Source: Candidatus Saccharimonadota bacterium
GTDB lineage: Archaea; Nanohalarchaeota; Nanosalinia; Nanosalinales; Nanosalinaceae
Length of the DNA stretch: 32,000 nucleotides
Direction: 5' to 3'
Assembly (NCBI GenBank): GCA_001761425.1
Contig: CP012986.1
Span: 90,001-122,000 of the forward strand
The notes under the pieces were generated by a model. The model saw only the letters and a list, made by a program, of their open reading frames with translations. It was not told where the DNA came from and ran no database searches. The position numbers were made by a program, and so were the translations under genes. Of the stretch, positions 1 through 32,000 are shown one piece after another (positions within the stretch are counted from its first letter, which is position 1; each line of letters starts with the position of its first letter).

Positions 1-1321
1 TCTTCCCTGATATACTGTCGATGATGTCGTATTTTCTTCCAAGCATGACTATGAGAGATGTGGCCATCACCGGTACGCCGAGAAGTGTCAGCGTCCACGG
101 ATTGACGAAGTGAGATACGAATACTATCAGGTTAGAGATAGGTGCGATTATGACTTCAAGATTTGAGATCAGTTCAGCGCCGCCGAACGTGTTTGTGAAC
201 CAGGATCCGAATGCCGAGATTCCTGCTCCGGCGTCTACGCCAAGCGATCCCACCATACTCCGAAGGTTAGCCGGCTGGCTCTCCGAAACCGTTCCAAGGA
301 TAACCGTTCCTGCTTTAGGTGATGTGACACTGTTAATTACACTCACGACCTTTGATGCGATAAACTGCGAGTAAAGAGGTGATAGAAGTGCCATTATTCC
401 TCCGAGTATGGAAGCTGCTGGCACATAGTACTTGATCTGATGCTCCTCAAGTAGTTCGAACTCCTCTATCACGTAACGACTCCAGAGTACTGCTAGGAGG
501 CCTATATTTGCCACTAGGTATACGTCCGTGAACCAGAATCTTGCTGAATCAAAAGTTGCTCCTAAGAACCCTCCTACAAGGACTGTAGGTGTGTATGCAG
601 CGACTAAGGCCTTGATATCTTCGTCTATGAATATGATTGCGCCTACAACTAGAGGATAGAGAAGCCAGAGCATCTTTGAGCCACCCCATGTTACTGTGAA
701 GATTCCGAGTGAGAGGCCTGAGATCATGCCGTGTTTCCAGTCTACCTGTTTCCAGGCCTTTGTGAAGAAGATCATCGAGATAAGCATAAAGACTGTTCCG
801 ACAGGTTCTTTATCGAAGAATCCTGCGGATGTTCTGTGCATGACTCCTGTCAGGACTGCGAGGAAGAAAGCTGCTGAGATACCTGTGAATCTGTCGAACA
901 GTTCTTTACCGAGGAAGTACATGAGTACTACTCCTATTGCTCCCATCAGTGCCGGGAAGAACTGTGCGTATTCCATGTAGTTCGGGAAAAATGCTGAAAG
1001 ACCCAGGTTATGCAGGAATGCCGGTGCTGCGATTTCTCCTATTTGTATAGTATGCGTTGGTGTTGCGTAGGGAAAGTATCGTGAGAAATCCAGTGCCGGG
1101 ACGCCTCCAGACAATGCAAGGTGCTGGGAAATTCTGAATATCATGTACGGGTCCAGGGCCTGTAAGTTTTCCAGACCTCTGTTCGGCAGGTTCCTGATCC
1201 AGAGCGAAAGTACGAATAGGAGGCCTACGGATGGTACCGGCCAGTTTTTCTTTACTGCCTCTTTGAAGTTTTCTGGCTGAGAAAGATGTTCTGCCTTTTC
1301 TCTGTACTGGCTCAGGTTCAT
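1..1321 (-). CDS. aglB: Archaeal oligosaccharyltransferase AglB/STT3, N-terminal ~440 aa; the 3' end of the gene lies beyond the window start
   Basis: Absent from the ORF track because it runs off the window edge. My reverse-strand translation from the ATG at 1321..1319 stays open to position 1 (MNLSQYREKAEHLSQPENFKEAVKKNWPVPSVGLLFVLSLWIRNLP...). It has a multi-TM profile and STT3-type loop motifs LDPYMIFR, AGFFDKEP and TVSESQP (compare the SVSE/TIxE motif). The C-terminal WWDYG region would lie outside the window. Confidence 0.8.
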   Translation of the reverse strand, partial: MNLSQYREKAEHLSQPENFKEAVKKNWPVPSVGLLFVLSLWIRNLPNRGLENLQALDPYMIFRISQHLALSGGVPALDFSRYFPYATPTHTIQIGEIAAPAFLHNLGLSAFFPNYMEYAQFFPALMGAIGVVLMYFLGKELFDRFTGISAAFFLAVLTGVMHRTSAGFFDKEPVGTVFMLISMIFFTKAWKQVDWKHGMISGLSLGIFTVTWGGSKMLWLLYPLVVGAIIFIDEDIKALVAAYTPTVLVGGFLGATFDSARFWFTDVYLVANIGLLAVLWSRYVIEEFELLEEHQIKYYVPAASILGGIMALLSPLYSQFIASKVVSVINSVTSPKAGTVILGTVSESQPANLRSMVGSLGVDAGAGISAFGSWFTNTFGGAELISNLEVIIAPISNLIVFVSHFVNPWTLTLLGVPVMATSLIVMLGRKYDIIDSISGK

Positions 1322-1413
1322 TATACTTATTGGGGTTTGATACTAGAGTTTTTATAATCTCTTCCATTTTAACGGCGGAGTGTTTAAAAGGATTCCAATA
1401 CACGCATTTTTCT
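1322..1413. promoter_or_regulatory. Divergent promoter spacer between aglB and secF with two TATA-like boxes
   Basis: gtttttataat at 1348-1358 lies about 30 bp upstream of the aglB ATG on the minus strand. gtttaaaagg at 1382-1391 lies about 28 bp upstream of the GTG at 1414. The spacing fits archaeal leaderless or short-leader transcripts. Confidence 0.35.
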
Positions 1414-2340
1414 GTGAACGCTGAAAAGTACTTTGACAGAGTTTACGAGGATTTTGACAGGTACCTCTGGATTCCTGTAGCTATGATCTTACTGGCTTCC
1501 GGCGTTCTAGGGTTTAATTATGCTACAACCGGAGAGTTCCTGGCAAAAGGGACAGATTTCTCGGGAGGATCCGAGATCCAGTTCGATATCCAGGGAGATT
1601 TCCAGAACTCTGAAATCGAACAGGCCTTCGCCGAAGCAGGCAGAACCCAGACAGATGTTCTTACACAGACCACGGGCAACCAGACACTTACTATCGTAGA
1701 GCTTCCTCCGCCAACCATCGATGAAGAGGAAGCTGCAAATATATTAGGCGATGCAGGGTATGAGGCAGAGGTGATAGGCCTCAGGACGATCTCGGCTGCT
1801 GTTTCCAGCCAGTTCTTCCTCCAGGCACAGATTGCTTTCGTTCTCGCGTTCACCACGATGAGTCTTGTAATTTTCATTGCGTTCAAAGATCTTACTCCTT
1901 CACTAGCTGTTATAATAGCTGCTTTCGGCGACATCGTATTCGCCTCAGCAGGTATGGCAGTGCTGGGAATACCATTAACTCTTGGTTCGCTTGCAGCATT
2001 GCTCATGCTCATCGGTTACTCTGTCGACACAGATATCGTGCTTTCAACCCGTGTTATAAAGAGGAACCGTGGCGAATTGAAGAAAAGAATGTGGAGCTCG
2101 GTCAAGACAGGCACAACTATGAGCATGGGAGGCATAGGAGGTTTTATACTGCTTTACGCAATTTCGTACCTGATGGTAGGGTCTTCAGAGCTTACAAACA
2201 TCGCAGCAGTCATGGTTATAGGCCTTCTTGCAGATATGCCTATTACATGGCTTGGTAACGCAGTTATACTGAAGAAATACAAGGAAGGAGAGTTTGAGAG
2301 GTTTAGAAGATTTGAAGAGGTGATTCCGTCATGGAAGTAA
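1414..2340 (+). CDS. secF: Protein-export membrane protein SecF
   Basis: The ORF-track ORF 1330..2340 starts at a TTG that abuts the aglB start. The in-frame GTG at 1414 leaves a promoter spacer and gives a typical SecF N-terminus (VNAEKYFDRVYEDFDRYLWIPVAMILLASG). It has the SecD/F C-terminal 6-TM domain (GYSVDTDIVLSTRV) and overlaps the secD start. Confidence 0.85.
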   Translation: MNAEKYFDRVYEDFDRYLWIPVAMILLASGVLGFNYATTGEFLAKGTDFSGGSEIQFDIQGDFQNSEIEQAFAEAGRTQTDVLTQTTGNQTLTIVELPPPTIDEEEAANILGDAGYEAEVIGLRTISAAVSSQFFLQAQIAFVLAFTTMSLVIFIAFKDLTPSLAVIIAAFGDIVFASAGMAVLGIPLTLGSLAALLMLIGYSVDTDIVLSTRVIKRNRGELKKRMWSSVKTGTTMSMGGIGGFILLYAISYLMVGSSELTNIAAVMVIGLLADMPITWLGNAVILKKYKEGEFERFRRFEEVIPSWK

Positions 2341-3950
2341 AGGATCTGATGAAGGAATGGAGACTGTGGGTTCTGTTCACTGCTCTTATTGTCTCTACAG
2401 TACTGCTGGCACCTCAGTACGAGACCACGGATTCCGGAGATTACAGGATATCCACAAATCTTGATGAGAGGAAAAGCATCGAGTTCTCCGGAGGAACAAG
2501 AATACTCTTAGGCCTTCAGTCCAATGCTACAGGGGAACAACTGGGCAACCAGGTTGAGCAGATAGAGAGAATACTTGGGATAAGATTATCTGGCTCAGGT
2601 TTCGCGGATACACAGGTCAGGAGCATTGATCTAGGTGGAGGGGAACAGAGGATTCAGGTCCAGACAGGTTCCAGTAATACTACCCGGTTGAAACAGCTTA
2701 TCTCCCAGCAGGGAAGCTTCGAGGCCCGCCTACCAGTTATGGTAGATGGAACGAAGAACTTCACAGTCGATCAAACCTACACCTTTGAACGTGAAAATGA
2801 ATCCGTGATCGCATCAGGGCCTTCCGGGACGATAGGAACGTACCAGGAGGGAGACAGCTTTTCAGCAGGAGAAACACGTTTCCACTTCGTAAATCAGACA
2901 GATCAATCAGCAAGACTTGAAGTTACCGCATACAACGGAGAAGATATAATAGAAGTCCTGACCTCTCAGGGAAGACTTACCGGAGGACAGGGCAACATCC
3001 AGTGGAGCTTCCAGATATCAATAGACCAGGAAGCAGCACAGAGAGTTCAGAAGATAGCACAGAACTACCAGGGCCTTAACCAGTTGACACTTGACAACGG
3101 ACAGCCTGCGATGCTTACATACTACGTCGATGGAAGAGAGGAGACCTCTCTGACTGTCTCATCAGATTTCAAGCGAAGTGTTATTACACAGCCTTCGATT
3201 CAGGGAACTGCAGAGTCACGACAGAAAGCTGTGGATGAACGCAACAGGCTTCAGGCCTTACTTCAGTCCGGGCAGTTACCTGTGCCTGTAGAGGTGCAGA
3301 GTATCAACCAGATCTCTTCCTCACTGGGAGGCGAGTTCTTCTCAGCATCAATAGTATCTATAATCGCAGCCCTCTTCGCAGTAGGAGGGGTCGTCTACGC
3401 ACGGTACAGAGATCCTAGAGTTGTCCTGCCAATTGTACTGACAGGAGCATCCGAAATCTACATCCTGCTCGGGCTCTGGTTCTCCAACTTCGGAACACTC
3501 AGCCTTTCAGCGATCGCAGGTATCGTGGCAGCAGTAGGAACAGGAGTGGACGACCAGATTATCATCACGGACGAATCAACACGTGAAAAGGTCGAATCAT
3601 GGAGCAACAGGATGAAAAAGGCCTTCTTTGTCATTTTCACTTCAGCAGCGTCCACAATCGGTGCCATGGCTCCTATCGTACAGCCAGGACTGATCAGCCT
3701 ATCAGTGACTACCTCAGGAATAGGCCTTATCGGATACACGTTGTATACCAGAGGGACGAACCTTCACTACATCGGTATTGGAGGCCTGGCGGTTATGGTG
3801 GGAATGATTACATCTTCGCTTGAGCCTTCAGGCGCGGCACTTCAGAACATCCACGAGTTCGCATTCACCACGATCTTTGGTATAATGATCGGTATCACGA
3901 TTACGAGGCCTGCTTATGCGAAAACCATCGAATACATCAAACAGGACTAA
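2331..3950 (+). CDS. secD: Protein-export membrane protein SecD
   Basis: 539 aa with an N-terminal TM, a large sequon-rich extracytoplasmic domain and a C-terminal SecD/F TM bundle (GTGVDDQIIITDE). It is translationally coupled to secF by a 10-bp overlap. Confidence 0.9.
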   Translation: MEVKDLMKEWRLWVLFTALIVSTVLLAPQYETTDSGDYRISTNLDERKSIEFSGGTRILLGLQSNATGEQLGNQVEQIERILGIRLSGSGFADTQVRSIDLGGGEQRIQVQTGSSNTTRLKQLISQQGSFEARLPVMVDGTKNFTVDQTYTFERENESVIASGPSGTIGTYQEGDSFSAGETRFHFVNQTDQSARLEVTAYNGEDIIEVLTSQGRLTGGQGNIQWSFQISIDQEAAQRVQKIAQNYQGLNQLTLDNGQPAMLTYYVDGREETSLTVSSDFKRSVITQPSIQGTAESRQKAVDERNRLQALLQSGQLPVPVEVQSINQISSSLGGEFFSASIVSIIAALFAVGGVVYARYRDPRVVLPIVLTGASEIYILLGLWFSNFGTLSLSAIAGIVAAVGTGVDDQIIITDESTREKVESWSNRMKKAFFVIFTSAASTIGAMAPIVQPGLISLSVTTSGIGLIGYTLYTRGTNLHYIGIGGLAVMVGMITSSLEPSGAALQNIHEFAFTTIFGIMIGITITRPAYAKTIEYIKQD

Positions 3951-5085: not shown

Positions 5086-6268
5086 AATGCTTGATCTAGT
5101 GCTGGCGACAGGCCTCGGCGTACTCCTGGGAATATTTACAGGCTTTATTCCGGGTATTCATCCCAACACAGTTGTGTTCTCCAGCTTCCCGCTTTACTTC
5201 TCCTTCCAGATAGAGTTCACAGCATATGTATCCTTTATAGCAGGTCTTTCTGTCTGCCATACATTCCATGACTTTTTACCTGCTATATACCTGAATACTC
5301 CATCTGCAGAATCAGCAGTTGCCAGCCTTCCAGGAGCAGAGATGGCAGGGGAAGGAAAAGGGCCTACAGCATTCTTCCACACAGTCTATGGAGGCCTTAC
5401 AGCTGTCTTCGCCGTTATACTTTTGACTCCTCTGCTTTTTCTCTTCCTTGAACCTCTCTACAGTTACGCTACCTCATTCATGCCGTTTATCCTTGTCTTT
5501 TTCCTCCTGTTCATAGTTATCAGCAACGGGAGTCTTTCAGGCCTTTTTGTCGCCTCTGTATCCGGTATTCTAGGATTGCTTGCTTTCAGGCAGCCTGTGA
5601 ACCAGAGTTTTATCCTGATGCCTGTTTTCGCAGGTCTTTTCGCTGTTCCTGCTGTTATCGAGGTCTGGAGAAGCGATAAAGATATAGTGGATCAGGAGGA
5701 GGCTGAGGAAAGTTTCTCCCTGCGAGGAGGCCTTGTGGGCTTTGTTTCAGGGCTCATCGCTGGTACTGTTCCTGGTGTAGGTGCTGGTGCTGGTACTTCT
5801 TTTCTGTCGCCTCTTATAGAAAAGAGGGAGGAGGTTCTTACAGGCCTCGGTGCTGTTAACACTTCGGACATTTTTGTGTCTTTGATAGTGCTTTTCTTGC
5901 TGGAGAAGGCTCGTTCCGGTGCTTCTGTGGCTGTGAATACTCTTGGAAATTTGACTCCTAGCCTTTTGGCTGTAACATATGGTTCAAGTCTCGTGGCAGT
6001 AGGCCTTTCTGTTCTCCTTGTTCCGTACACTCACGATGTCTTTCTGGGAGCTGTCAAATCTTTAAAGGTCAGAAATATTTTAGTTGCTGTTTTAGGCCTT
6101 ATCTGTGGTTTAACTATTTATTTCACTGGTTTTCCAGGCTTTTTGACTTTACTGACCTCATCTGCTATAGGCCTCTTGGCATGGCGTGAGGACTGCAGGA
6201 TATGCGGTATGGCGGTGCTTATTGTGCCTGCGCTGTTTTTCTATCTGGATATGGGTATTTTTATTTAG
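5086..6268 (+). CDS. TctA/DUF112-family integral membrane protein
   Basis: ORF-track ORF 4901..6268 trimmed to the ATG at 5086 (MLDLVLATGLGVLLGIFTGFIPGIHPNT), because the upstream extension is antisense to nac. It is polytopic with a duplicated GxxPG(I/V)G pattern typical of the TctA/DUF112 family. Confidence 0.7.
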
Positions 6269-6289
6269 GCCTGGGATAAATTCTGGTTT

Positions 6290-7291
6290 ATGGATCTGCA
6301 GAAAGGTTTCCTTATCTCTGTTACGCTTTCCCTGCTTTTCATCTCACTGCAGATGCTGGAGCCTTTCCTGGGTTATCTTCTGGGAACTGTGATGGTGGCG
6401 TTCGTTCTTTATCCTCTGCAACGGCGTATGGCACCGAGGATAGGTCCGAGAGTCTCAGCCTTTACTTTGATTATTTTCACTTTACTTGCTGCTGTCATAC
6501 CTCTAGGCCTTGCTGTTAACGCCGTTGTAGATGATGCAAGAGGTCTCTCGGATAACCTGAACGGCACTGATTTCATCAAGACAGATGAGATAGAGGGACA
6601 GATATCCGAATTGACAGGTCGGGAAATGGATATCGACGGCGAGATAGACGGTTTTATCAGCGAGCTGGCATCTCAGGCTATCGGAGGCGCACCCCAGGTT
6701 ATAGGTATCGTTACAGACCTGTCTATAGGCCTTTCCATATCGTTTTTCGTGCTTTTCTACATGCTGAAAGATGGTAAGGACTTCAAGGCCTGGCTGAAAG
6801 AAACAACTCCTTTACCAGACCATATCCAGGACAAGCTTTACGGTAAAACGTACAAGACGACATGGGCAGTGGTTAAAGGTCATGTTCTAGTTGCTATCGC
6901 ACAGGGAAGTATGGCCGGGTTAGGCCTTATGATAGCCGGTATTGAGAGCTATGCGTTCTGGACTTTCGTTATGATCCTGCTGGCGTTCATCCCTATGGTC
7001 GGGGCTTTCCTGGTCTGGGGTCCTGCAAGCCTCTATCTTTTCGTCACCGGAAGGCCTGCGCAGGGAGTCTTCCTGGCTATCTGGGGAGCGGTGGCGGTAG
7101 GTTTTACCGATAACTTCCTGAGGCCTATTCTTGTGGAGCGAGATGCTGATCTGCATCCTGCGATAATTCTTATAGGGGTTATAGGAGGCCTCTATGTGTT
7201 CGGCTCTGCGGGCATATTCATGGGACCGATCGCTCTCGGGGTTTTGAAGTCAGTGCTTGAGGTCTTCAGGAACAACTACGATGAGCTGTGA
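6290..7291 (+). CDS. AI-2E family transporter (PerM/UPF0118-type permease)
   Basis: 333 aa and about 8 TM segments. The family-typical C-terminal half reads FIPMVGAFLVWGPASLYLF...GFTDNFLRPILV...GLYVFGSAGIFMGP. Confidence 0.8.
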   Translation: MDLQKGFLISVTLSLLFISLQMLEPFLGYLLGTVMVAFVLYPLQRRMAPRIGPRVSAFTLIIFTLLAAVIPLGLAVNAVVDDARGLSDNLNGTDFIKTDEIEGQISELTGREMDIDGEIDGFISELASQAIGGAPQVIGIVTDLSIGLSISFFVLFYMLKDGKDFKAWLKETTPLPDHIQDKLYGKTYKTTWAVVKGHVLVAIAQGSMAGLGLMIAGIESYAFWTFVMILLAFIPMVGAFLVWGPASLYLFVTGRPAQGVFLAIWGAVAVGFTDNFLRPILVERDADLHPAIILIGVIGGLYVFGSAGIFMGPIALGVLKSVLEVFRNNYDEL

Positions 7292-8102
7292 ACCACGGTT
7301 TTTAAACCTGGGAAAGGCATGGTTATCCGTGGTTGAAGCCGGAAAGGCCTCTGTTTATTCTGTAGTTTTACTTCTCGTCTTCTCTATACCGGTTGCTTCG
7401 CAGCAGGTGGATATACAGGAGAGTTCAGAGGGTTTCAATGCGTTCGTCAATACGAACTTCTCAAGTAGCTTCCAGATGGATATAGGTACAGGCCTCGAGG
7501 AGATAAGTCTTGAGGACAGCGACGGCAGTTACTCTATGACAGAAAGGCCTGAAAAGAAGACCAGGAAGTTTGTCAGCCCTCATGGCAGTTTGAAGGTAGA
7601 GAAGACTCCAAATATGTCAGTTGAGACGGTAAGAACGCCTTATGGAGTTCTGAAGACCGGTTTCAGGGAAGGGGAGAATATCTCCAGTTTTTCAGGGCCT
7701 GAAGATTTGAAAGACAGGGTTCGGGAGATCAGAGAGAAGTTGAAGAGCAATCTCAGTGTAAGCAGGCGTGAGGCCTCGGTAAAGAAAAGCGTGGTTATGG
7801 AAAAGATGCTTCCTGATGTCTCTTTAAGCCATGAGTTCGGAGACAGTGAGAGTATAACGATCTCGAATGATGAAGAAGAAAGTATTTCTCTGGACGGCTG
7901 GAAGGTAAAGAACAGCGATCCAGACGTTTACGAGCTGAAGAAAACTCTTTCACCGGGAGAAGAGGTTGTTCTCTATCCGAAAGAAGCCGGAAATGTTACA
8001 GAAAATGCTGTGGAAAGTACAGGGGTCGATATAGATGAGACAGAGGATAGTTTGACCCTTGAGAACCGTTTAGGCAGGGAGATAGATTCCGAGACGTGGT
8101 AA
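7281..8102 (+). CDS. Secreted acidic protein with a C-terminal lamin-tail-like (LTD) domain
   Basis: Hydrophobic signal-like segment VYSVVLLLVFSIPVASQQ. The C-terminus ITISNDEEESISLDGWKVKNSDPDVYELKKTLSPGEEVVLY matches the LTD pattern (N..xxxDLSGWxL...Y.F....L.PG..V.V). There are several N-x-S/T sequons. The start is uncertain: TTG 7257, ATG 7281 or GTG 7329. Confidence 0.55.
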   Translation: MSCEPRFLNLGKAWLSVVEAGKASVYSVVLLLVFSIPVASQQVDIQESSEGFNAFVNTNFSSSFQMDIGTGLEEISLEDSDGSYSMTERPEKKTRKFVSPHGSLKVEKTPNMSVETVRTPYGVLKTGFREGENISSFSGPEDLKDRVREIREKLKSNLSVSRREASVKKSVVMEKMLPDVSLSHEFGDSESITISNDEEESISLDGWKVKNSDPDVYELKKTLSPGEEVVLYPKEAGNVTENAVESTGVDIDETEDSLTLENRLGREIDSETW

Positions 8103-8111
8103 GGCCTTTTT

Positions 8112-8393
8112 CTAGATTTCTTCCAGTTCTCCGTTGACCCTGTATTTTTTGTCTCTGAATATTCTGTTGAGTGTTTTCTCTTCTTCCTCTGCAACGACGA
8201 CTACTTCTCCGAAAAGGTCTTTAAGGCCTAATTGAAGCGTGTTTTTCAGTTCAAAAAATGCTCCGAATATGAGGAACATATAGAGCAGTACTGTGAGGGA
8301 TGTGGTGTTGTAACCTAGTGTGTTTACGACAAGAAATGCTGCGCCTGCTGTAAGGAGGCCCTGTATTGCTCCTCTTTCGAGTGCGCGTTTCAT
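8112..8393 (-). CDS. Small membrane protein, function unknown
   Basis: 93-aa ORF with two predicted TM helices and an acidic C-terminal tail. I recognise no family. Confidence 0.5.
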   Translation of the reverse strand: MKRALERGAIQGLLTAGAAFLVVNTLGYNTTSLTVLLYMFLIFGAFFELKNTLQLGLKDLFGEVVVVAEEEEKTLNRIFRDKKYRVNGELEEI

Positions 8394-8397
8394 TGGT

Positions 8398-8769
8398 TTA
8401 TTCTGGTTTTCTGGTTTCTTCGTATGGGTCTTCTATTCTTTTGATGTCTTCAGGCTTGTAGGGGAATGATATTTCGAGTATTTCTGCGACCTGGCTGTCG
8501 ATGTTCTGGAGCTGGTGTTTCTGTCCTGATCTGATGACCAATGCGTTTCCACGCTCCAGCTCCTTCATGCCGTCTTCCATCCTGACGACTACAGTGCCTT
8601 CCTGGAGGTAGATGATGTCCGTCTGCTTCTGGTGCAGAGCGTAGGAAGTCATCTCGTCGCCGTTGATAACCAGTTTTCTTATACCTAGCATGCCGGTCTG
8701 TTCGCCGATCTCTATCTGAGTCATCAGGACCTGATCCTCGTAACCCCATGGCTTGTCAATGCGACCCAT
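8398..8769 (-). CDS. Cupin-domain protein (mannose-6-phosphate-isomerase-type cupin_2)
   Basis: KPWGYE...LVINGDEMTSYALHQKQTDIIYLQEGTVVV...LVIRSGQKHQLQN is a typical single cupin barrel. Confidence 0.7.
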   Translation of the reverse strand: MGRIDKPWGYEDQVLMTQIEIGEQTGMLGIRKLVINGDEMTSYALHQKQTDIIYLQEGTVVVRMEDGMKELERGNALVIRSGQKHQLQNIDSQVAEILEISFPYKPEDIKRIEDPYEETRKPE

Positions 8770-8816
8770 ACAAATCTAAGACCAGTCAAACTTATTATAA
8801 ATTCCGATAAGTTTCC

Positions 8817-9356: not shown

Positions 9357-9376
9357 TTTTCTGATTTCACCTTTTT

Positions 9377-10623: not shown

Positions 10624-10631
10624 AAAAGTTA

Positions 10632-11378: not shown

Positions 11379-11454
11379 ATAGAATATTTATCACATCGAA
11401 CTTTTAATTTATGACCGTGGAAAAACACCGGTCGAGGCCTTAAAACTTCAAACT

Positions 11455-18113: not shown

Positions 18114-18118
18114 CCTTC

Positions 18119-22494: not shown

Positions 22495-23516
22495 GGATTC
22501 CAATCCTCTCTTATTTCTTCCTGTCCTTGTTCATAGTGCTTTATAAGCCCGGATATAGCTTTTTCCAGATTGTATTTTTTATCAATAGAGATCTGGTTAT
22601 TTATCTTGGCGAAACTAACCTGATATGACGGACCCGGATCCTTTTCCCTTTTGTACTCTATCTCTACTTCCCGATCCATTTCTGCCTCTACTTCTTCTTT
22701 TACTCTATCAGCTATCTCTTCTATCCTAAAGTTCATCTCATCGAATCCCGCGTTAAAAACTGCTCCGCTCTCATAATCGCTCTTTGCAATCTCCTTGATG
22801 ATTCTAGCCGAGTCAACGACATGAAGGAAAGGCCTCCAGTTCTTCCCGTTTCCATAAGGTGTGAGAGGTTTTCTTTCCAGGGCCTGTTTTACAAATTTGT
22901 TTATAACAAGATTGTATCTGGTGCCTCCCAGTTCTGGCTCCTGGCTCCCGAAGTTTGTAGCCAGCCTTAACGAGACTGCAGGAACTTTCTCTTTTTTTGC
23001 CCTTTTCGATACTATCTTTTCTGCGGAGGCCTTGGCTCTGGCATAAGTATTGATAGGGTTTATACTGCTTTCTTCTGTTAGTTTTCCATCGGGACTTCTA
23101 CCGTATATATTACAGCTAGATATATTGATGAAGGCCTCAAGTTCTGTTTTCTTCGCAGCCTCAAACATGTTCATCGTGCCATCGAATATCGTCTTCCAGT
23201 AGAGCTTCCTGTTATCGTTCGAGTAGGAGGCCCCTGTAACCGCTGCGAGATGGAAAACGTAATCTGCTTCATCCACTAGTTCTTCAATCTGATGTGTATC
23301 ATACCTTACATCTCCAGTGACAAGCCTTAAGTTAGAGAATTCTTCTTCTATCTTTTCGTACACCTGATATCCTTTTTGTGGTTTGTCGAAGTAATCAAAC
23401 CTTCCTCTGAGGGAGTCGAAAAGAACTATTTCATGTTCCTCAAATTCTTTATCCTTCTGGAGTTCACTGACCAGCTGAGGGCCTATATATCCTGTGCCCC
23501 CCGTAATTAGGATCAT
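22491..23516 (-). CDS. NAD-dependent sugar epimerase/dehydratase (extended SDR)
   Basis: MILITGGTGYIGPQLV, SSCNIYG, and the YARAK catalytic motif. Length 341 aa. Confidence 0.85.
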   Translation of the reverse strand: MILITGGTGYIGPQLVSELQKDKEFEEHEIVLFDSLRGRFDYFDKPQKGYQVYEKIEEEFSNLRLVTGDVRYDTHQIEELVDEADYVFHLAAVTGASYSNDNRKLYWKTIFDGTMNMFEAAKKTELEAFINISSCNIYGRSPDGKLTEESSINPINTYARAKASAEKIVSKRAKKEKVPAVSLRLATNFGSQEPELGGTRYNLVINKFVKQALERKPLTPYGNGKNWRPFLHVVDSARIIKEIAKSDYESGAVFNAGFDEMNFRIEEIADRVKEEVEAEMDREVEIEYKREKDPGPSYQVSFAKINNQISIDKKYNLEKAISGLIKHYEQGQEEIREDWNP

Positions 23517-23599
23517 AGATTATGGCTGGTCTTCTCAGAATTAAATAGCTTGGATACCTTTCTTTCGAATCTATAAATCTTGAAGACTTAGGTAATTTT

Positions 23600-23881
23600 A
23601 TGACTGCCGAAGAACAGATGTATGGGCCTTTCAGAATGGAGGAAACCTACGCCTTAGTATTCAGCCATAATTCCGATACAGAAGTATACAGAGATGTAGA
23701 AGAAGTTCTAGACGAAGTGAAGGAGGATATAGGCCGGAATACATATGAAGACCTAGCTGACATTTACGGTGAAGAGGCTCTAGATGAAATAGATCATGTA
23801 TCTCATTTAGACGATGTTCAGGATGGAGTCGGATGTACGGAGATATGGGAGAAAATGAGTGAGAGACGCGCACAAGACTAG
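23600..23881 (+). CDS. Small highly acidic hypothetical protein
   Basis: 93-aa ORF with an ATG start and coding-like composition. I recognise no family. Confidence 0.45.
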   Translation: MTAEEQMYGPFRMEETYALVFSHNSDTEVYRDVEEVLDEVKEDIGRNTYEDLADIYGEEALDEIDHVSHLDDVQDGVGCTEIWEKMSERRAQD

Positions 23882-23888
23882 TCAAACT

Positions 23889-23897
23889 AATTTATAC
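23889..23897 (+). promoter_or_regulatory. TATA-like box for the UDP-sulfoquinovose synthase gene
   Basis: aatttatac is centred about 26 bp upstream of the ATG at 23919. Confidence 0.4.
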
Positions 23898-23918
23898 TTT
23901 CGAACTCACTGTCTTACT

Positions 23919-25064
23919 ATGGCTATACTGGTTACAGGCGCAGACGGATACATGGGCTGGCCAACAGTTCTAAGACTGGCAGAGAGAAACCCTGAAGAAA
24001 GAATAATTGGAGTAGACAACCTCGCACGCAGAGACTGGGTTGAAGAAGTAGGAAGCGTCTCCGCCACAGAAATAGACTCAACAGAAGAAAGATACATTTC
24101 AAAAGATAATATCAGCTTTGTAGAAGGAGATCTATCTAACCGGGACTTCGTAAAAGATATACTGGAAGTTCATCAACCCGATACAGTAGTTCACCTAGCT
24201 GCACAGCCTTCAGCACCTTACTCCCAGATAAATGGAGAGAGAGCACTGGAGACACAGAAGAACAATATCTCCATGACCCTGAACCTTCTATGGGGCCTGA
24301 AAGAGACAGGCCTTGAAGACACTCACTTTATCGAAACTACAACTATGGGAGTCTACGGCGCACCAGAGTTCGAGATACCGGAAAACGGCCTAGATGTAGA
24401 AAGAAAGGGAGGCGAAGATAATATACCTTACCCCGCGATGGGAGGAAGCTGGTATCACCAGACTAAGTCCTTTGACGCAGGAAATCTCAGACTCGCTAGC
24501 GGACATTGGGATCAACCGATCTCCGACCTAAGAACAGCGATCGTCTACGGAACAGAGACAGAAGAAACCAAAGAAACAGGCCTTGACACGCGTTTCGACT
24601 TCGACTACTACTTCGGAACTGTCGTGAACAGGTTCTGCGCACAGGCAGTAGCAGGATACCCTATCACAGTCTACGGCAAAGGAGAGCAGAGAAAACCAAT
24701 GATAAGCCTGGAAGACGCAGTAGAAAGCATCGCGCAGCTAGTGGAAAAAGGCCACAGTGGAGAAGGAGTAGAAGTCTACAACCAGATCACAAGGCCCGTA
24801 GCCATCGTGGAACTCGCAGAAACTATCGAAAAAGTTGCCCAAGAGATAGGGCTCGATACAGAAGTCAAGCACTATGAAAACCCTAGAGACGAGAAAGAGG
24901 ACCACAAGATGGAGGTAGAAACCGGGAAATTTATGGATCTCCTCGGAGAACAGAAAGTAGACATAGAAGAAGGAGTAAGAGACATTCTAAAAACACTGAA
25001 AGAACAGCAGGAGAAAATAGAAAACCACGAAGACAGGTTCCTACCAGGCGTCCTAACTGATTGA
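23919..25064 (+). CDS. sqdB: UDP-sulfoquinovose synthase (SQD1/SqdB/Agl3 family)
   Basis: Near-colinear motif match to SQD1 as I recall it: GADGYMGW (GGDGYCGW), VDNLARR (VDNLVRR), SAPYS, TTMGVYG (GTMGEYG), IPYP, SWYHQTK (SFYHLSK), DLRTAIVYG, FDFDYYFGTVVNRFCAQAVAGYPITVYGKGEQ, and NPRDEKEDH. The ORF is trimmed to MAILVTG. Confidence 0.9.
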   Translation: MAILVTGADGYMGWPTVLRLAERNPEERIIGVDNLARRDWVEEVGSVSATEIDSTEERYISKDNISFVEGDLSNRDFVKDILEVHQPDTVVHLAAQPSAPYSQINGERALETQKNNISMTLNLLWGLKETGLEDTHFIETTTMGVYGAPEFEIPENGLDVERKGGEDNIPYPAMGGSWYHQTKSFDAGNLRLASGHWDQPISDLRTAIVYGTETEETKETGLDTRFDFDYYFGTVVNRFCAQAVAGYPITVYGKGEQRKPMISLEDAVESIAQLVEKGHSGEGVEVYNQITRPVAIVELAETIEKVAQEIGLDTEVKHYENPRDEKEDHKMEVETGKFMDLLGEQKVDIEEGVRDILKTLKEQQEKIENHEDRFLPGVLTD

Positions 25065-25073
25065 GAGCTAGAT

Positions 25074-26606
25074 ATGAAAGGAGAGGATTATCTAGACTCT
25101 AAACCAAGTTTGGACAGACTTAACCATTTGGACCTGCTCAAATCAGTATTGAAAGAAGCAGGAGTTAATAAAGAAGATATAATGCTTTATGGCAGTTCTA
25201 TAACTGCTATATATGGTATAAAACCCAATAACGATCTAGAATTCATACCGCACCCAGATGTAAGATCAAATTTTCTAGAACTCGCTGAGGAGAATCCTGA
25301 TATAAACAAGGCTAGAAACGGTCAAATCCATTTTCCAGGAGAAGTAAAAGCAGTATGGGAACCCGGGAAATTCGAACCCTTCGGCTGGAGCGATGAAGAA
25401 CTGTTTGAAGATGAGACATGTTACATAGAAACTAAAGGATACAAGTTCCTCAAGTTAGAGCTTTTCGTTTCTCTTAAAGCAGCTAAAAGGCGTCCAAAAG
25501 ATTTTGAACATATAGATTTGCTTGAGGAAGAAGATTACATAGGCGGGGAAGACTGGAACTGGGAGCTAGTTCACCAGTTACCGCCCTGGGAACGCAGAGA
25601 AAGGCCTCCAAAGAGTCTCATAGAGATAGGTAGAGATTCCATAAAACAGTACGGCCTATTTTACACAGCAGCCAGAGGACCTACATATGTGGCTTCTCAT
25701 CTAGGATCAAAGGCCCTCCAGAAAATCGGTGCTAATAATGAGGCCGTCAAGGATAAACTTCAGACAACAGGAGAGAACTTGAAACCATTTATCGAACGAA
25801 ATAATCAATATCAGGTTCCTGCTCTTCTTAATGACCAGTTTGATGATGAAGAATTTGAACGCTATGATTTGGTTGCAGCTATACTTTATTTAGAGGGAAA
25901 AGAGGAGTTCAAGGATTTCTTCGAAGGCGAGGACTACGAAGAACAGATTTCTGTTACTCCAAAAGGAAGGTTGAACGGAGGGCTACTTGAGCTTGCAAAC
26001 AAGCTCGCCGAGATTTCAGAAGACGAGACAGATCTAGCCACAATAGATATTTCAGTGAAAATATCCCGTAAACCTTCTATCTCAAAAAGAGGGCGCTCCT
26101 GGGCTGAAAACAAATTTGGACCAGATAGAGTAGAACTTCTAGAGAATAGGAAAGAAGAACTGCTGGAAAACTCAGGAGTTTATTTCTACGCCATGCTTTG
26201 GCCTTCTGTCAGAGATTATCATGATGAAATTGAAGCCTGGATTCAAGACAGAATAGAGGTAAAAGAAAGCATCAACCTGGACCTAAAGGAGAATATACAC
26301 GACTATCTAGAATCTGTATATTCTGTGGATGCTAGGCCTTCAGACTGGGAGAAGGAGAGAAAGATTAAGAAAATACAGTCTTTCGGCTCCGAAGTAAGTG
26401 TTCTGAAATTAAGAGTTGATAATCCCGACTTTTGGTATGAAGAGGACGAACCAATCTCTAATACTGTCCACAGTCTTAAGCAAAAGTGCAGGAAAGAATT
26501 TCAGAAAAGGGTAGAGAACTACGAATATGGAGTTATAACCCATTTCACAGACAACTATGAACATAACGCGCACAACTCTAAAATCCTAGATAGGTACAAA
26601 TCATAA
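25074..26606 (+). CDS. Uncharacterised 510-aa protein with an N-terminal Pol-beta-superfamily nucleotidyltransferase-fold domain
   Basis: LYGSSITAIYGIKPNNDLEFI fits hG[GS]-x9-13-Dh[DE]h. The downstream KAAKRRPKDFEHIDLL resembles the R.KD..D+..L helix of small-molecule NTases. The C-terminal ~130 aa (GVYFYAMLWPSV...VITHFTDNYEHNAHN) weakly resembles an NDK-like fold. Confidence is high that this is a real gene and low for its function. Confidence 0.6.
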   Translation: MKGEDYLDSKPSLDRLNHLDLLKSVLKEAGVNKEDIMLYGSSITAIYGIKPNNDLEFIPHPDVRSNFLELAEENPDINKARNGQIHFPGEVKAVWEPGKFEPFGWSDEELFEDETCYIETKGYKFLKLELFVSLKAAKRRPKDFEHIDLLEEEDYIGGEDWNWELVHQLPPWERRERPPKSLIEIGRDSIKQYGLFYTAARGPTYVASHLGSKALQKIGANNEAVKDKLQTTGENLKPFIERNNQYQVPALLNDQFDDEEFERYDLVAAILYLEGKEEFKDFFEGEDYEEQISVTPKGRLNGGLLELANKLAEISEDETDLATIDISVKISRKPSISKRGRSWAENKFGPDRVELLENRKEELLENSGVYFYAMLWPSVRDYHDEIEAWIQDRIEVKESINLDLKENIHDYLESVYSVDARPSDWEKERKIKKIQSFGSEVSVLKLRVDNPDFWYEEDEPISNTVHSLKQKCRKEFQKRVENYEYGVITHFTDNYEHNAHNSKILDRYKS

Positions 26607-26611
26607 CCAAG

Positions 26612-27478
26612 ATGAGACTAATTTTGAAGGGAATTCAATGTCTGAAGGAAGAAGGCCCTAAAACATTCTCCAGAAAATTCTACAGATACTCTTCTCAAAT
26701 ACCTTTCAAGATAGCCAGATCAAAAGTTCCAAGGCTATACTATTCTACGGCAGAACGCTGGCATAGATATTTCAGAGATTTCAACACAGATTCCTGGGAA
26801 GCTCCTCTAAACCCATACAAAACCATATGGATAAATTCAGATGAAATCAACGAAGTCACAGGAAGAGTACCCAACCTGCCTTTTGAAGAGAGGATTAAGA
26901 AATTCGGAGAAGTCAAAGAAGGAGACTGGGATATAACAGACCAAATACAGTACCAGGCATGGTATCCAGAGAAATACGGAGATAACAAATGGCTCTATGA
27001 TTTACTCTATGATAAAAAAGTGGAGGAAACTGTTTTCTTCAGATCAGCTGATAACCATTTCAAGAACAATATTGATTGGGAGAACACAGAATTCTACCGG
27101 AAAATGATAGAAGGTTTTGATAATGAGAAATCCGGTTTTCCTACCTATGGAAGAAATGAAAAAGAGCTCAAACAAAATTTAAGAGGAATAGACCGCCTTT
27201 ACGACAAAATAAAGGACAAAGGCGTGAAGCAGCAACATCAGATAAAAAAGAAATGTTATCTACACCTATTGAACGATTCCATATTAGTTGATATTTCGAG
27301 AAACGGTAAATTCCTTTTCGTAGAAGGTAGAAGGCGCCTAACTATTGCCAAAATTCTGGATTTGGAGAAAATTCCGGTCAAAGTACAGGTTCGTCATCCT
27401 CAATGGATGGATTATCGAGACAAGGTTTACAACCAGAAGTCAGGAGAGGGGCATCCCGATTTCTCTGAATTCCGATAA
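26612..27478 (+). CDS. Uncharacterised 288-aa protein with a C-terminal ParB/Srx-fold domain
   Basis: FLFVEGRRRLTIAKILDLEKIPVKVQVRH closely parallels ParB box II (GERRxRAAkllGl.eIPv.V), the nucleotide-binding arginine patch. I do not recognise the N-terminal 200 aa. Confidence 0.6.
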   Translation: MRLILKGIQCLKEEGPKTFSRKFYRYSSQIPFKIARSKVPRLYYSTAERWHRYFRDFNTDSWEAPLNPYKTIWINSDEINEVTGRVPNLPFEERIKKFGEVKEGDWDITDQIQYQAWYPEKYGDNKWLYDLLYDKKVEETVFFRSADNHFKNNIDWENTEFYRKMIEGFDNEKSGFPTYGRNEKELKQNLRGIDRLYDKIKDKGVKQQHQIKKKCYLHLLNDSILVDISRNGKFLFVEGRRRLTIAKILDLEKIPVKVQVRHPQWMDYRDKVYNQKSGEGHPDFSEFR

Positions 27479-27531
27479 ATTTATTTTCTCAAACCATTAA
27501 TTGAATAAAGTAAGTTTCAGCAAAATATTAT

Positions 27532-28233
27532 ATGAAAGCAGTCATCCTAGCAGCCGGGCCAGGCACAAGAATGAGGCCTCTGACTGAAGATTGTCCAAAA
27601 GGCCTACTTGAGTTAAATAATGAGAGTATCATTGAGAGACAAATTAGGATCTTGAAGGACTGTGGTCTGAGAGAGCGTGATATTTCTATTGTTATAGGTT
27701 ATTGCGCGGAGGACTTTAGAAGAGAGTTCGAGAACAGAGATATTAGGTTAATTGAGAACGAAGACTGGAGCAAAACTGATAATCTTTATTCATTCAAGTT
27801 ATCCAGAGATTTTGCGGAAGGAAAAGACTTCCTTGTAATCAACGGGGACGCCATATTTTCCAAAGGACTGATAGAAAAGACTATAGCAATTGGATCTTCG
27901 GGTTATCCGCTAGACATGGAGACTCCAGACGATGAATCCATCAAGGTTGAAGTTCAAGATGGCCAAATGACAAGGATTTTGGACAAGGATTCCGAAAACT
28001 ATGATGGAGTCACCACTGAAGTGTTTAGAATTTCAGATGAGGATTCAGAGAAAATCTTTGATGCTGCAGAGAAGATATCAGAGAAAGACAAAACGCAATG
28101 GTTTGACTCCGCAGTTGATCAAATACTAGATAAGGCTCAATTCTCGGCTATTGACGTCAGCGACCAATTCTGGAGAGAAGTAGACAATCCAGAAGAACTC
28201 GAGGAGGTCAGAGAAGAACTTAAGAACCTCTAA
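27532..28233 (+). CDS. Cytidylyltransferase-like nucleotidyltransferase (LicC/IPCT-like), paralog B
   Basis: MKAVILAAGPGTRMRPLTEDCPKGLLEL... is colinear with 18119..18826 over its full length. Confidence 0.8.
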   Translation: MKAVILAAGPGTRMRPLTEDCPKGLLELNNESIIERQIRILKDCGLRERDISIVIGYCAEDFRREFENRDIRLIENEDWSKTDNLYSFKLSRDFAEGKDFLVINGDAIFSKGLIEKTIAIGSSGYPLDMETPDDESIKVEVQDGQMTRILDKDSENYDGVTTEVFRISDEDSEKIFDAAEKISEKDKTQWFDSAVDQILDKAQFSAIDVSDQFWREVDNPEELEEVREELKNL

Positions 28234-29374
28234 CTTGATCTAGAATATGCTCTGCCTGCAGACCTTCTTTCCTGTATTTGAATACTTCTTTTTTCTTATC
28301 TTTGTAATCCGTATCTTCTTTTTCCAAGTTCTTCAGAGCTTCTTCAAGTTCTTCAACTGTATTTACCTGTTTTCCCGGGACCAAATGCTTAATCTCATTG
28401 TTTAATCCTCTTTTTTTCTCGTATTCTTCTTTGTCATATTCAAATCGGATTATTGGTTTGCCTGTATGCATATAATCAAATACAACTGAAGAGTAGTCGC
28501 TAATTAAGGCCTCCGATTCTTTGAGAAGTAGGTATGGATCTAGATTGTTTTCTGAAATCATGATATTGCTGAACTCTCCAGATAGGTCGAATCTATGATG
28601 AGGTTTTAATACCATCTTCATGTCGAGTCTTTCAAGTATAGCATCTATTTTGTCTAGATCGATATCTCCTTCTATACTCTCATCTTCATCATATCTTCTG
28701 TAGGTAGGCATGTAGACGATGTAATCTTCTGAAGGAGGTTCTTCCGAGAAGAGTTCATGACCTCCTATCTCTTCATAAAATATATCATTTCGGGGATACC
28801 CCGCACAGACTACCTCTGAAGTCCTGAAGACTTTTTTGTAAAGTCCAAGATATTTTTTACTTGTCTCGAGGAAGAAATCAGGCTTATAGAACATCCTATG
28901 ATAAATAGAACTAACTGCTTCTATCAAATCTCCGCCAGACTCTTTATCAGATATAATATTCTTATACGGAAATCCGTGCCATAGATTAACTTTATTCGAC
29001 CCAAGATAGAGCCAGGAGTTCAGACTTATAGGCGAATAATTATCAAAAAATACATATTGTGCTCTCAAAAGTTTGTACTTTGCTCTCAGAGTATTAGAGT
29101 TGATAGCATTGAACCCTTTTTCCGACAAAGTATCTACAACTTCCTCATCATCACTAATCCAAACTAAATCCATACCTATCTCCTCGGTTTCAGCAAGTTC
29201 CAGAAACATGTACTTTGAATTATGAGCGAATTTTCCCAGCGAAGTGGTGAAGACAGCAAGATCCTGATCCTTAGGAAAGATTTTGGACAAAAATCCGGAG
29301 AGAAACATTAGAAATCTCTGCTTAATCTTAAGATTAAACAATATTCTTCTTACTTGGTCTAGAACTGAAGCCAT
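28220..29374 (-). CDS. CDP-glycerol glycerophosphotransferase family protein (TagB/TagF-like)
   Basis: YMPTYRRYDE (compare YAPTWR), LKPHH, and LISDYSSVVFDYMHTGKPIIRFEYDKEEY (compare the LITDYSS..FDF....KP.IFF..D...Y signature). Confidence 0.8.
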   Translation of the reverse strand: MASVLDQVRRILFNLKIKQRFLMFLSGFLSKIFPKDQDLAVFTTSLGKFAHNSKYMFLELAETEEIGMDLVWISDDEEVVDTLSEKGFNAINSNTLRAKYKLLRAQYVFFDNYSPISLNSWLYLGSNKVNLWHGFPYKNIISDKESGGDLIEAVSSIYHRMFYKPDFFLETSKKYLGLYKKVFRTSEVVCAGYPRNDIFYEEIGGHELFSEEPPSEDYIVYMPTYRRYDEDESIEGDIDLDKIDAILERLDMKMVLKPHHRFDLSGEFSNIMISENNLDPYLLLKESEALISDYSSVVFDYMHTGKPIIRFEYDKEEYEKKRGLNNEIKHLVPGKQVNTVEELEEALKNLEKEDTDYKDKKKEVFKYRKEGLQAEHILDQVRGS

Positions 29375-29440
29375 TAAACTATCTTAAAATCTTGAGATTT
29401 TAAATTATACTCGTCAAAACTCTAAACAGGCCTTTAGAAT

Positions 29441-31185: not shown

Positions 31186-31188
31186 TTT

Positions 31189-32000
31189 CTAGGCCTCCTT
31201 CTCTCTTACTTCCAGCCATGGAACGTTCAGTAGTTCGTCTTCATTTCCACCGATATAGTGGCCCCAGCCGCCCTCGCCGAGAAGTTCGCCGTGGTCCGCA
31301 GTCACTACTACTTTGCCATCAAGGCCTTCTATTAGTCTCTTTACTTCTTCTAATGCGAGTCTAAGGTCTTTCCTGTAGTATTCCTTGACTTTTTCCTCTC
31401 CTTTTTCTCTCGCTAGCTTCTCATAGTCGTTTCCAAGGCCCAATGCTCCTTTAATTTTTGCCTGGAATGTATAAGGTATGGACGAGAACACTGGGTCCCA
31501 GACAGGTCTTGTCGCATCCAGTGCTTTTCTCAAAACAGTTTCTTCTTCGTCTTCAAGCTTGTTTTTCGGCGCCCACTCAAAATTTTTCTCATTCATTGAG
31601 ATGAAAGGTCTGTGTGGCTGGATATAATGTATTACTGTTTTTGAGTATTCGAGGTTTTCCAGTGCTGTATCTGTCAGGTCTTCAGGCCTTACAGTGTTTA
31701 ATTCGTCGTCCCAGTCTTTTATCCAGGAGTCAACGACGTTCTGGAACTGTTCAGGCGCTTTCCAGCTCCAGTCTTCTCCGCTGACCAAGTCTCCAAGTGT
31801 GAGGCCTTCTCCGTTGATATATGGGTTCGCAGAGATGTAGTTGTAGCTGTATCTCCCTGTGAATGTATTTTTCAGCCACTCTGGTGTCGCAGATCCTCTT
31901 GACCTAACCTTCTTTAACTCGCCTTCTAGAAAGTCTTCGTACTCTTGTTCAAAAATGTCGTATCTGCATGCGTCCAGAACGATCAGGTAGTCCCAGTCTG
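31189..32000 (-). CDS. Soluble alkaline-phosphatase/sulfatase-superfamily protein (tandem copy 2; the 5' end lies beyond the window)
   Basis: The ORF-track start at 31788 is a TTG. My translation stays open upstream to the window end (...DWDYLIVLDACRYDIFEQEYEDFLEGELKKVRSRGSATPEWLKNTFTGRYSYNYISANPYINGEGLTLGDLVSGEDWSW...), colinear with copy 1. Confidence 0.7.
   Translation of the reverse strand, partial: DWDYLIVLDACRYDIFEQEYEDFLEGELKKVRSRGSATPEWLKNTFTGRYSYNYISANPYINGEGLTLGDLVSGEDWSWKAPEQFQNVVDSWIKDWDDELNTVRPEDLTDTALENLEYSKTVIHYIQPHRPFISMNEKNFEWAPKNKLEDEEETVLRKALDATRPVWDPVFSSIPYTFQAKIKGALGLGNDYEKLAREKGEEKVKEYYRKDLRLALEEVKRLIEGLDGKVVVTADHGELLGEGGWGHYIGGNEDELLNVPWLEVREKEA

Follow-up and report, generated by a model that had tools for sequence, protein, structure and literature searches.

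The closest described counterparts of the sequence element reported here are the highly iterated palindromes (HIPs) of cyanobacteria, which include HIP1 (GCGATCGC) as well as GGCGCC in Calothrix PCC 7103, GCsGC in Cyanothece PCC 7822, and rCCGGy in Oscillatoria PCC 10802 (Elhai 2015, PMC4390886; Xu et al. 2018, PMC5861425). GGCGCC has an observed/expected ratio of 15.5 in Calothrix D253 and a slightly larger one in Calothrix PCC 7103, and every alternate HIP co-occurs with a cognate methyltransferase (PMC4390886). HIPs are also distributed periodically along the chromosome, at 10–90 kb. For HIP1 and the alternate HIPs, a repair-, recombination-, or selection-type process acting on methylated sites has been proposed. 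The cause of these palindromes has been open for ~30 years and has so far been studied only in cyanobacteria. Here, we describe the palindromic hexamer AGGCCT in a 32-kb window (the whole stretch of DNA that was analyzed, ~positions 88,963–120,962 of the 1.125-Mb contig) of Candidatus Nanopetramus SG9 (Nanohaloarchaea archaeon SG9), a DPANN archaeon from Atacama halite. The SecD encoded in the window is identical to a protein of SG9. In SG9 and several other lineages of Nanohaloarchaeota, AGGCCT appears to be a HIP-type signature that most likely arises from a process coupled to an AGGCCT-specific DNA methyltransferase; we assign this reading a probability of ~0.5.

AGGCCT matches the cyanobacterial HIPs in form, enrichment scale, dispersal, conservation, and lineage specificity, which are the features that were compared, and by analogy it may share their link to a methyltransferase. 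Like the HIPs, it is a short GC-rich palindrome with an enrichment close to that of GGCGCC in Calothrix, is dispersed without flanking repeats over all reading frames and intergenic spacers, is conserved at orthologous positions above background, and is present in a lineage-specific manner. The initial annotation of this DNA had named HIP1 or uptake sequences as the closest analogy, and this holds for the palindromic form, the enrichment scale, the dispersal, and the conservation, all of which are as in HIPs. In contrast to the HIPs, AGGCCT occurs in Archaea (DPANN, Nanohaloarchaeota), has a different sequence and a higher density (one per ~265 bp), and recurs as one and the same motif in separated lineages whose nearest sampled relatives lack the excess. 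No description of an AGGCCT signature in archaea or nanohaloarchaea was found in full-text literature searches, the SG9 genome paper, two nanohaloarchaeal methylome papers, or an archaeal restriction-modification survey, in line with the initial annotation, which was aware of none. Apparently, a HIP-type motif has not been described in Archaea until now, and the present one is new in its sequence, higher in density, and patchy among close lineages. It represents a second, independent system in which the same phenomenon can be studied in another domain of life, in ~1-Mb genomes, and with natural on/off contrasts. The host-associated lifestyle considered in the initial annotation agrees with the nanohaloarchaeal source.

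An exact count gave 120 AGGCCT sites in the window (GC 45.1%), with 15, 25, 15, 15, 12, 16, 6, and 16 sites in consecutive 4-kb bins; the earlier estimate of ~120 and its per-bin counts were identical. The number expected from base composition alone (order 0) is 6.2, as previously approximated (~6), and rises to 8.3 at order 1, which corresponds to a 14-fold excess, and to 22 and 51 at orders 2 and 3. At maximal order, the Markov expectation reaches 109. The values climb with order (22, 51, 109) because the sub-words consist of the hexamer: AGGCC (134 copies) and GGCCT (148 copies) are almost wholly made of AGGCCT, and the maximal-order value is therefore uninformative and not a valid control. 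The full hexamer is enriched and not GGCC alone, as had been proposed, since 120 of the 182 GGCC tetramers lie within AGGCCT and the 62 outside it show no enrichment. The six flank variants of the GGCC core (BGGCCT and AGGCCV) total 42 copies, close to the ~40 counted before. The same density extends beyond the window: 185 AGGCCT sites (3.8/kb) compared to 12.3 expected were present in 48.9 kb of contiguous SG9 sequence, consisting of the window, 7.7 kb upstream, and 9.2 kb downstream.

Among the hexamers of the window, AGGCCT ranks first in frequency and, by a wide margin, in over-representation; the second most over-represented 6-bp palindrome reaches only 2.5-fold. Other 6-bp palindromes are mostly under-represented, as is usual in prokaryotes and as the initial annotation had assumed. 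AGCGCT (5.2 expected), GGGCCC (3.7 expected), and GTGCAC (3.1 expected) were absent from the window, and TCGCGA (1 vs 5.1 expected), CCTAGG (2 vs 7.5), and GAGCTC (4 vs 13.7) were scarce. Therefore, this genome shows ordinary restriction-site avoidance, to which AGGCCT is the one extreme exception.

The 37 gene models that were built cover 95.6% of the window, are backed by NCBIfam and Pfam matches, and contain 109 of the sites. Synonymous shuffling within genes, which had been named beforehand as the test that could overturn the enrichment, left 15.2 ± 3.5 sites (maximum 26 in 500 shuffles, z ~27), and shuffling of codon order left 8.5 ± 2.9. The three reading frames hold 20, 32, and 57 sites compared to 3.8, 3.8, and 7.9 expected, so that each frame is enriched 5- to 8-fold. 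The three sites in secD that were presented earlier as examples of the three codon phases are indeed read in the frames stated (Table 1). The shuffle controls confirm the claim that the excess is not a codon-pair or dipeptide effect. The non-coding 4.4% of the window has 11 sites that lie outside or across gene ends, i.e., one per ~127 bp compared to one per 281 bp in genes, which makes the spacers about twice as dense. These spacer sites are single copies that often touch stop or start codons, form no inverted pairs, and are not placed consistently with respect to promoters or terminators. Most of the intergenic positions named in the initial annotation stood, namely all spacer sites of Table 1 other than 19592 and 19667, whereas four (15790, 17877, 18111, and 31191) fall just inside gene calls. 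The flanks of AGGCCT show no consensus except that T at −1 and, symmetrically, A at +6 are mildly avoided; positions −8 to −2 and +7 to +13 were near background, and no extended consensus or repeat unit was found.

The excess could also be an artefact or by-product of amino-acid or codon usage, of GGCC richness, of a small mobile repeat, or of assembly error, for which nothing speaks apart from the uninformative maximal-order value of 109. A codon or dipeptide effect is ruled out by both shuffles (15.2 and 8.5 vs 109) and by the density in the spacers, and GGCC richness by the lack of enrichment outside the hexamer. A mobile repeat, whether of the repetitive extragenic palindrome type, the miniature inverted-repeat transposable element type, or another type, is ruled out by the lack of conserved flanks. 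Assembly error is ruled out as well, because independent assemblies (JGI, Logan, ENA, and NCBI; different continents) agree at orthologous in-frame positions. The probability of an artefact is thus practically nil.

The degree of saturation was determined by counting all opportunities in the window genes, where an opportunity is an amino-acid context that can encode AGGCCT without protein change. AGGCCT was present in 57 of the 79 x-Gly-Leu contexts (72%), in 31 of the 49 [Lys/Glu/Gln]-Ala-[Phe/Leu/Ser/Tyr/Cys/Trp] contexts (63%), and in 20 of the 25 Arg-Pro dipeptides (80%). The fourth base of the hexamer in the A-GGN-CT context was distributed as C:T:A:G = 57:6:3:3, compared to ~22:20:41:11% in background glycine codon usage. 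All three alternative bases are depleted at this position, A most of all, with an odds shift of ~9- to 35-fold. Reading this shift as a fixation bias, we infer a scaled strength of roughly 2–3.5 per site, which is weak. The pressure favors AGGCCT over its one-step neighbors, as checked directly at position 4, and acts in all frames and in the spacers.

The distribution of bases at position 4 bears on the repair-bias role that was put forward in the initial annotation. In very-short-patch repair, a 5-methylcytosine (m5C) methyltransferase together with a T:G enzyme of the Vsr or Mig type would turn AGGTCT and AGGCTT back to AGGCCT and overshoot. Methanothermobacter, where a GGCC m5C methyltransferase is paired with the Mig T:G glycosylase, provides an archaeal precedent. 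When an orthologous position lacks AGGCCT or an x-Gly-Leu context is unoccupied, the commonest sequence in its place is AGGTCT, and 5 of the 11 site differences between SG9 and its close relative L001 are C/T at the inner cytosine. However, the T neighbors are not depleted (AGGTCT/AGACCT, 27 observed vs 25 expected, ratio 1.06; AGGCTT/AAGCCT, 17 vs 21, ratio 0.81), and the depletion at position 4 includes A and G besides T. According to our four-state calculation, a T-to-C boost alone can neither lower A and G nor lift C above ~50%. Moreover, sites were also gained via G-to-A at position 1 and from sequences that are 2–5 mismatches away. The Dcm/Vsr system of Escherichia coli resembles AGGCCT in that a methyltransferase site, CCWGG, is made commoner there by biased repair. 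The CCWGG excess is well under two-fold and is accompanied by CTWGG depletion, in contrast to AGGCCT, where the excess is ~15-fold, the neighbors are not depleted, and all alternative bases are disfavored. Simple T:G patch repair as the sole cause is largely refuted, and we regard it as highly improbable; the data speak against the repair-bias proposal in its Vsr-type form.

The pressure is also visible in the proteins. In eight orthologous genes, opportunity contexts numbered 1.7–2.0 per 100 codons in the SG9 clade and 1.1–1.3 in trait-less relatives, so that the permissive peptide contexts are ~1.6-fold commoner in the clade. The occupancy of these opportunities was 48–74% in the clade compared to 3–9% in the trait-less relatives. 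Many sites were gained by non-synonymous changes, such as TIV to TGL, ME to RP, LTL to LGL, and AEH to AGL. The AGGCCT pressure has thus shifted proteins towards Gly-Leu, Arg-Pro, and Lys/Glu/Gln-Ala-X contexts, and one short DNA word can strongly reshape both the synonymous sites and the proteins of a reduced symbiont genome.

Conservation of the sites was followed in codon alignments of 17 orthologous genes. Within the SG9 clade, 31–70% of SG9 sites were also AGGCCT at the orthologous position, compared to 11–29% for ordinary hexamers (2.5- to 3-fold), and where the amino acids were identical, AGGCCT was kept in 64–85% and other hexamers in 27–39%. The secD site 3906 was kept in every SG9-clade relative and also in the outgroup L006. 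No excess was observed between SG9 and non-enriched lineages (0–3% vs 5–6%). In separately enriched lineages, 10–20% of SG9 sites were again AGGCCT, compared to 0–6% in non-enriched lineages at the same distance; therefore, the same permissive positions were filled repeatedly. Between SG9 and L001, which differ by 2.5% at the nucleotide level, 82 sites were shared, 7 were found only in SG9, and 4 only in L001, which shows that both gains and losses occur. The decay of ancestral sites could not be traced in the group of L026, L032, and L033, whose sequences are too divergent. Together, these data describe an equilibrium under a directional pressure that is weak, pervasive, and ongoing, and they fit neither a frozen relic nor a site prone to hypermutation.

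Relatives were compared by their SecD neighborhoods, up to ±10 kb. All seven genomes of the SG9 clade were enriched, with 3.2–4.4 AGGCCT/kb across 59–99% SecD identity and 44–54% GC. In Ca. Nanohalobium constans and another genome at 54% SecD identity, the density was ~0.2/kb, which equals the expectation. A wider scan, in which each GTDB species was represented by one genome, yielded 80 loci and revealed four more enriched nanohaloarchaeal lineages: B1-Br10_U2g29 (3.7/kb), M3_22 (2.3/kb), DAL-WCL_22_57C1R (2.9/kb), and NHA29 (3.1/kb). For strain M3_22, a complete genome is available. About 20 other Nanohaloarchaeota were near expectation, as were 40 other DPANN loci, with all loci of Woesearchaeota, Nanoarchaeota, and Aenigmatarchaeota at expectation. 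According to the SecD tree and the identity matrix, the nearest SecD relatives of M3_22, B1-Br10_U2g29, and NHA29 had ~0.2–0.3/kb, and up to 0.9/kb in L033; DAL-WCL_22_57C1R, which has no reliable SecD placement because the translation at its SecD coordinates is riddled with stop codons, was left out of this comparison. No alternative hyper-abundant palindrome was found in any lineage of the 80-locus scan, and every enriched lineage had the same hexamer. Since enriched lineages have non-enriched nearest relatives, the trait is patchy and was either gained or lost several times, always as AGGCCT.

Intermediate densities of 2- to 3-fold the expectation were found in L033 (CAYMJB010000013.1, 0.9/kb), L038 (CAZWHR010000045.1, 1.1/kb), and L031 (JBDGRE010000002.1, 0.65/kb), and the SecD of L033 is 75% identical to that of L032, which has AGGCCT at expectation. 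These three lineages may represent transitional stages in the gain or loss of the trait. Because AGGCCT-rich lineages stand beside AGGCCT-poor nearest relatives, the responsible gene should be findable by presence/absence comparison. AGGCCT could also serve as a practical binning marker in hypersaline metagenomes, either by k-mer counts or by StuI digestion. One record of the scan, L029 (JBLGBK010000001.1), is titled "MAG: Colwellia polaris" (MAG, metagenome-assembled genome), and its 130-kb contig encodes a nanohaloarchaeal-type SecD that is 42% identical to that of SG9; this assembly is probably mislabelled or mis-binned.

IMG/VR was scanned for AGGCCT-dense contigs, and no nanohaloarchaeal virus was among the matches listed, which were mostly chance matches. 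The AGGCCT-dense contig L193 was rejected as a tandem-repeat artefact. Another locus, L149 (IMGVR_UViG_2791354938_000002, 8150–20011), is a siphovirus-like (pro)phage of bacterial type whose proteins are non-halophilic in composition. Its 11.9 kb (43% GC) contain 26 dispersed AGGCCT sites compared to 2.8 expected, and no match to it was found in the INPHARED phage collection. AGGCCT may be hyper-abundant also in an unrelated bacterial host or phage.

AGGCCT is a classical Type II recognition sequence, and a genome that encodes an active restriction enzyme usually avoids the cognate site, or tolerates it, rather than accumulating it. The hexamer was accordingly rejected as the target of an active Type II restriction-modification system, for which it would be avoided or near expectation, as it is 14-fold over-represented. 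In Alcanivorax borkumensis SK2, the StuI-type system M.AboORF2079P/AboORF2079P reads the same sequence, the outer cytosine is methylated, and the genome contains 1,674 AGGCCT motifs (PMC12128166). In contrast to SG9, AGGCCT is not hyper-abundant in this bacterium. With a genome size of ~3.1 Mb, its density amounts to approximately one site per 1.9 kb. In a REBASE survey of complete archaeal genomes, a single gene related to restriction-modification is listed for the enriched strain M3_22. It encodes an orphan Type II methyltransferase with a predicted N4-methylcytosine product, a class that is missing from the AGGCCT-poor Ca. Nanohalobium constans (PMC10609329).

Under the favored reading, the AGGCCT pressure would depend on a single gene product, which some lineages would have acquired and others lost. 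The likeliest candidate would be an AGGCCT-specific (StuI-type) orphan methyltransferase that works without a partner restriction enzyme and probably modifies cytosine at N4, and alleles with methylated sites might then win in repair or recombination, or by weak selection on the effect of the methyl mark. We favor a methyltransferase-coupled process because of the match to the HIPs, the Type II nature of the site, the Alcanivorax system, the patchy recurrence, and the orphan methyltransferase of M3_22. The patchy recurrence of one hexamer is the expected product of a mobile single-gene determinant. The link of the AGGCCT excess to methylation is circumstantial. It draws on the Type II site, the Alcanivorax system, the M3_22 enzyme, and the methyltransferases of the cyanobacterial HIPs, and to this extent it supports the methylation role considered in the initial annotation. 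Several points weigh against this reading. A catalytic-motif scan detected no methyltransferase gene in the window, in the 17 kb of SG9 sequence next to it, or in any of the loci retrieved, and no DNA methyltransferase or nuclease was among the window genes, each of which was annotated with Pfam and NCBIfam. The presence of a methyltransferase would not by itself account for the accumulation of sites, and the conversion step is hypothetical, as it is for HIP1. In very close strains, AGGCCT conservation (91%) had no detectable excess over that of other hexamers (88–92%); the force must therefore be weak or slow, given that no excess arises at 2.5% divergence. Finally, the patchy distribution is based on a distance tree of a single protein, SecD, and on ~20 kb per genome.

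The preference over every base at position 4, the reshaped proteins, and the conservation of sites between species are features that AGGCCT shares with DNA uptake sequences. The hexamer might thus be a DNA uptake or recombination signal, with site-bearing alleles spreading by molecular drive, similar to the uptake signal sequence (USS) of Haemophilus and the DNA uptake sequence (DUS) of Neisseria or to the reported role of HIP1 in transformation. USS and DUS likewise occur in thousands of copies (the number of AGGCCT copies being extrapolated), show directional upkeep, lie in genes at a cost to the protein, and are conserved between related species. Import of host DNA has been proposed for nanohaloarchaea (PMC6642349), and HIP1 is reported to make transformation more efficient in a manner that depends on homology and methylation (bioRxiv 10.1101/2024.09.10.611283). 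However, USS and DUS are non-palindromic, comprise 9–12 bp with their flanks, often form inverted terminator pairs, and are tied to a known competence receptor, whereas AGGCCT is a palindromic hexamer with single copies in the spacers. An asymmetric 9- to 12-bp consensus and inverted terminator pairs were not found among the window sites and the spacer copies, respectively. A hexamer also discriminates poorly against foreign DNA, and low-GC genes of the window that were probably acquired recently (see below) got in despite having few sites. Taken together, we consider an uptake signal unlikely.

Inter-site spacing bears on a further possibility, in which selection acts on the sites themselves because a protein binds or halts there; this could be a nucleoid-organizing factor, or AGGCCT could be a Chi-like self signal that protects the chromosome from the organism's own DNA-degrading machinery. 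Pooled over the window and the SG9-clade loci, spacings of >20 bp were close to exponential and without regularity, and 5 spacings of <20 bp were observed compared to ~20 expected for random placement. Short-range exclusion between sites was not significant when the spacing of permissive contexts was controlled (both occupied in 3 of 13 pairs vs 5.2 expected). Conservation of position above background, an argument also used for selection on HIP1 (PMC5861425), would be in favor of binding sites, as would the symmetry of the flank preference, which is expected of a dimeric binder. One site per ~265 bp corresponds to the density of a random tetramer and might reflect a required spacing. In addition, nanohaloarchaeal SPEARE proteins with nuclease-like domains were proposed to degrade imported DNA (PMC6642349). 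On the other hand, an estimated ~4,000 sites (3.8/kb extrapolated to 1.125 Mb) would be hard to hold by individual selection in a symbiont with a small genome, the spacing has no regularity, its deficit below 20 bp disappears after control for context, and no candidate binding protein was identified. Direct selection of this kind is therefore also rather improbable. A more specific form is that AGGCCT is a positive "self" mark, whose dense (methylated) sites would stop or exclude the organism's own DNA-scavenging nuclease in a manner resembling the protection of E. coli DNA from RecBCD by Chi; the proposed import and breakdown of host DNA by nanohaloarchaea would serve as a source of nucleotides. 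This is very unlikely; if true, such a system would force each acquiring lineage to fill its genome with AGGCCT, which would explain both the patchy recurrence and the near-saturation.

The genes of the window include housekeeping genes (STT3, SecF/SecD, NAC, TctA, and FolD) and a cell-surface glycosylation cluster. The coordinates of the sites and of a low-GC block of cell-surface glycosylation genes are given in Table 1. GC content is ~0.47 elsewhere in the window, and the block encodes a CDP-glycerol glycerophosphotransferase, a nucleoside triphosphate (NTP) transferase, and two open reading frames (ORFs) without an assigned family. Only 5 of its 15 synonymous opportunities were occupied by AGGCCT, compared to ~78% in the remainder of the window. 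The block is probably recently acquired surface-glycan DNA in which conversion to AGGCCT is incomplete.

Table 1. Positions of AGGCCT and of associated features, numbered from the first base of the 32-kb window; each site in the lists is given by its first base.
Feature	Position	Strand	Remark
AGGCCT sites, 1–10 kb	498, 607, 714, 754, 1221, 1622, 1776, 2220, 2510, 3253, 3619, 3722, 3782, 3906, 3993, 4054, 4377, 4474, 4613, 4785, 5110, 5392, 5539, 5728, 5842, 6001, 6094, 6169, 6267, 6505, 6727, 6786, 6922, 7052, 7121, 7186, 7345, 7490, 7545, 7771, 8102, 8224, 8934, 9032, 9241, 9596, 9825, 9977		exact count
AGGCCT sites, 10–20 kb	10195, 10545, 10714, 11009, 11242, 11435, 11497, 12980, 13311, 13364, 13499, 13559, 13690, 14041, 14132, 14298, 14536, 14790, 14922, 15177, 15790, 15848, 16070, 16595, 17478, 17750, 17877, 18111, 18489, 18690, 18779, 19376, 19592, 19667		exact count
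AGGCCT sites, 20–32 kb	20087, 20138, 20535, 20613, 21029, 21168, 21330, 21357, 21411, 21459, 21753, 21843, 22325, 22830, 23027, 23132, 24308, 24578, 25602, 26334, 27574, 27600, 28507, 29428, 29598, 30237, 30267, 30310, 30438, 30596, 30664, 30778, 30918, 31057, 31191, 31322, 31684, 31802		exact count
secD site	2510..2515	+	frame xxA-GGC-CTx, Leu-Gly-Leu; commonest coding context
secD site	3253..3258	+	frame xAG-GCC-Txx, Gln-Ala-Leu
secD site	3906..3911	+	frame AGG-CCT, Arg-Pro
Eleven spacer or stop/start-overlapping sites within 6267..29433	6267, 8102, 10195, 11435, 13311, 13364, 14298, 15848, 19592, 19667, 29428		gene models
Low-GC cell-surface glycosylation block	25074..29374		GC 0.36–0.41, low AGGCCT occupancy

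Some genes of the window occur in related copies. Two MobA-like NTP transferases (18119–18808 and 27532–28233) are 71% identical, and two tandem sulfatase-like genes (30355–31185 and 31189–31998) are 49% identical. Three uncharacterized ORFs in the same orientation lie just past the window end and are possibly further copies of the sulfatase-like genes. A short decayed fragment of the sulfatase-like family was found at 19700–19915, inside an unusually long spacer of 471 bp (19537–20007).

An 868-bp spacer (6715–7582 of locus L210), located approximately 1.6–2.5 kb beyond the window on its right side, adjoins the genes for Cdc6/Orc1 and for the DP1 and DP2 subunits of PolD. This spacer is likely a replication origin, because repeats resembling origin recognition boxes (CCCCCTGATTTCGTGTGGAA) flank its AT-rich core in both orientations beside the cdc6/orc1 and PolD genes. 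It contains only 2 AGGCCT sites.

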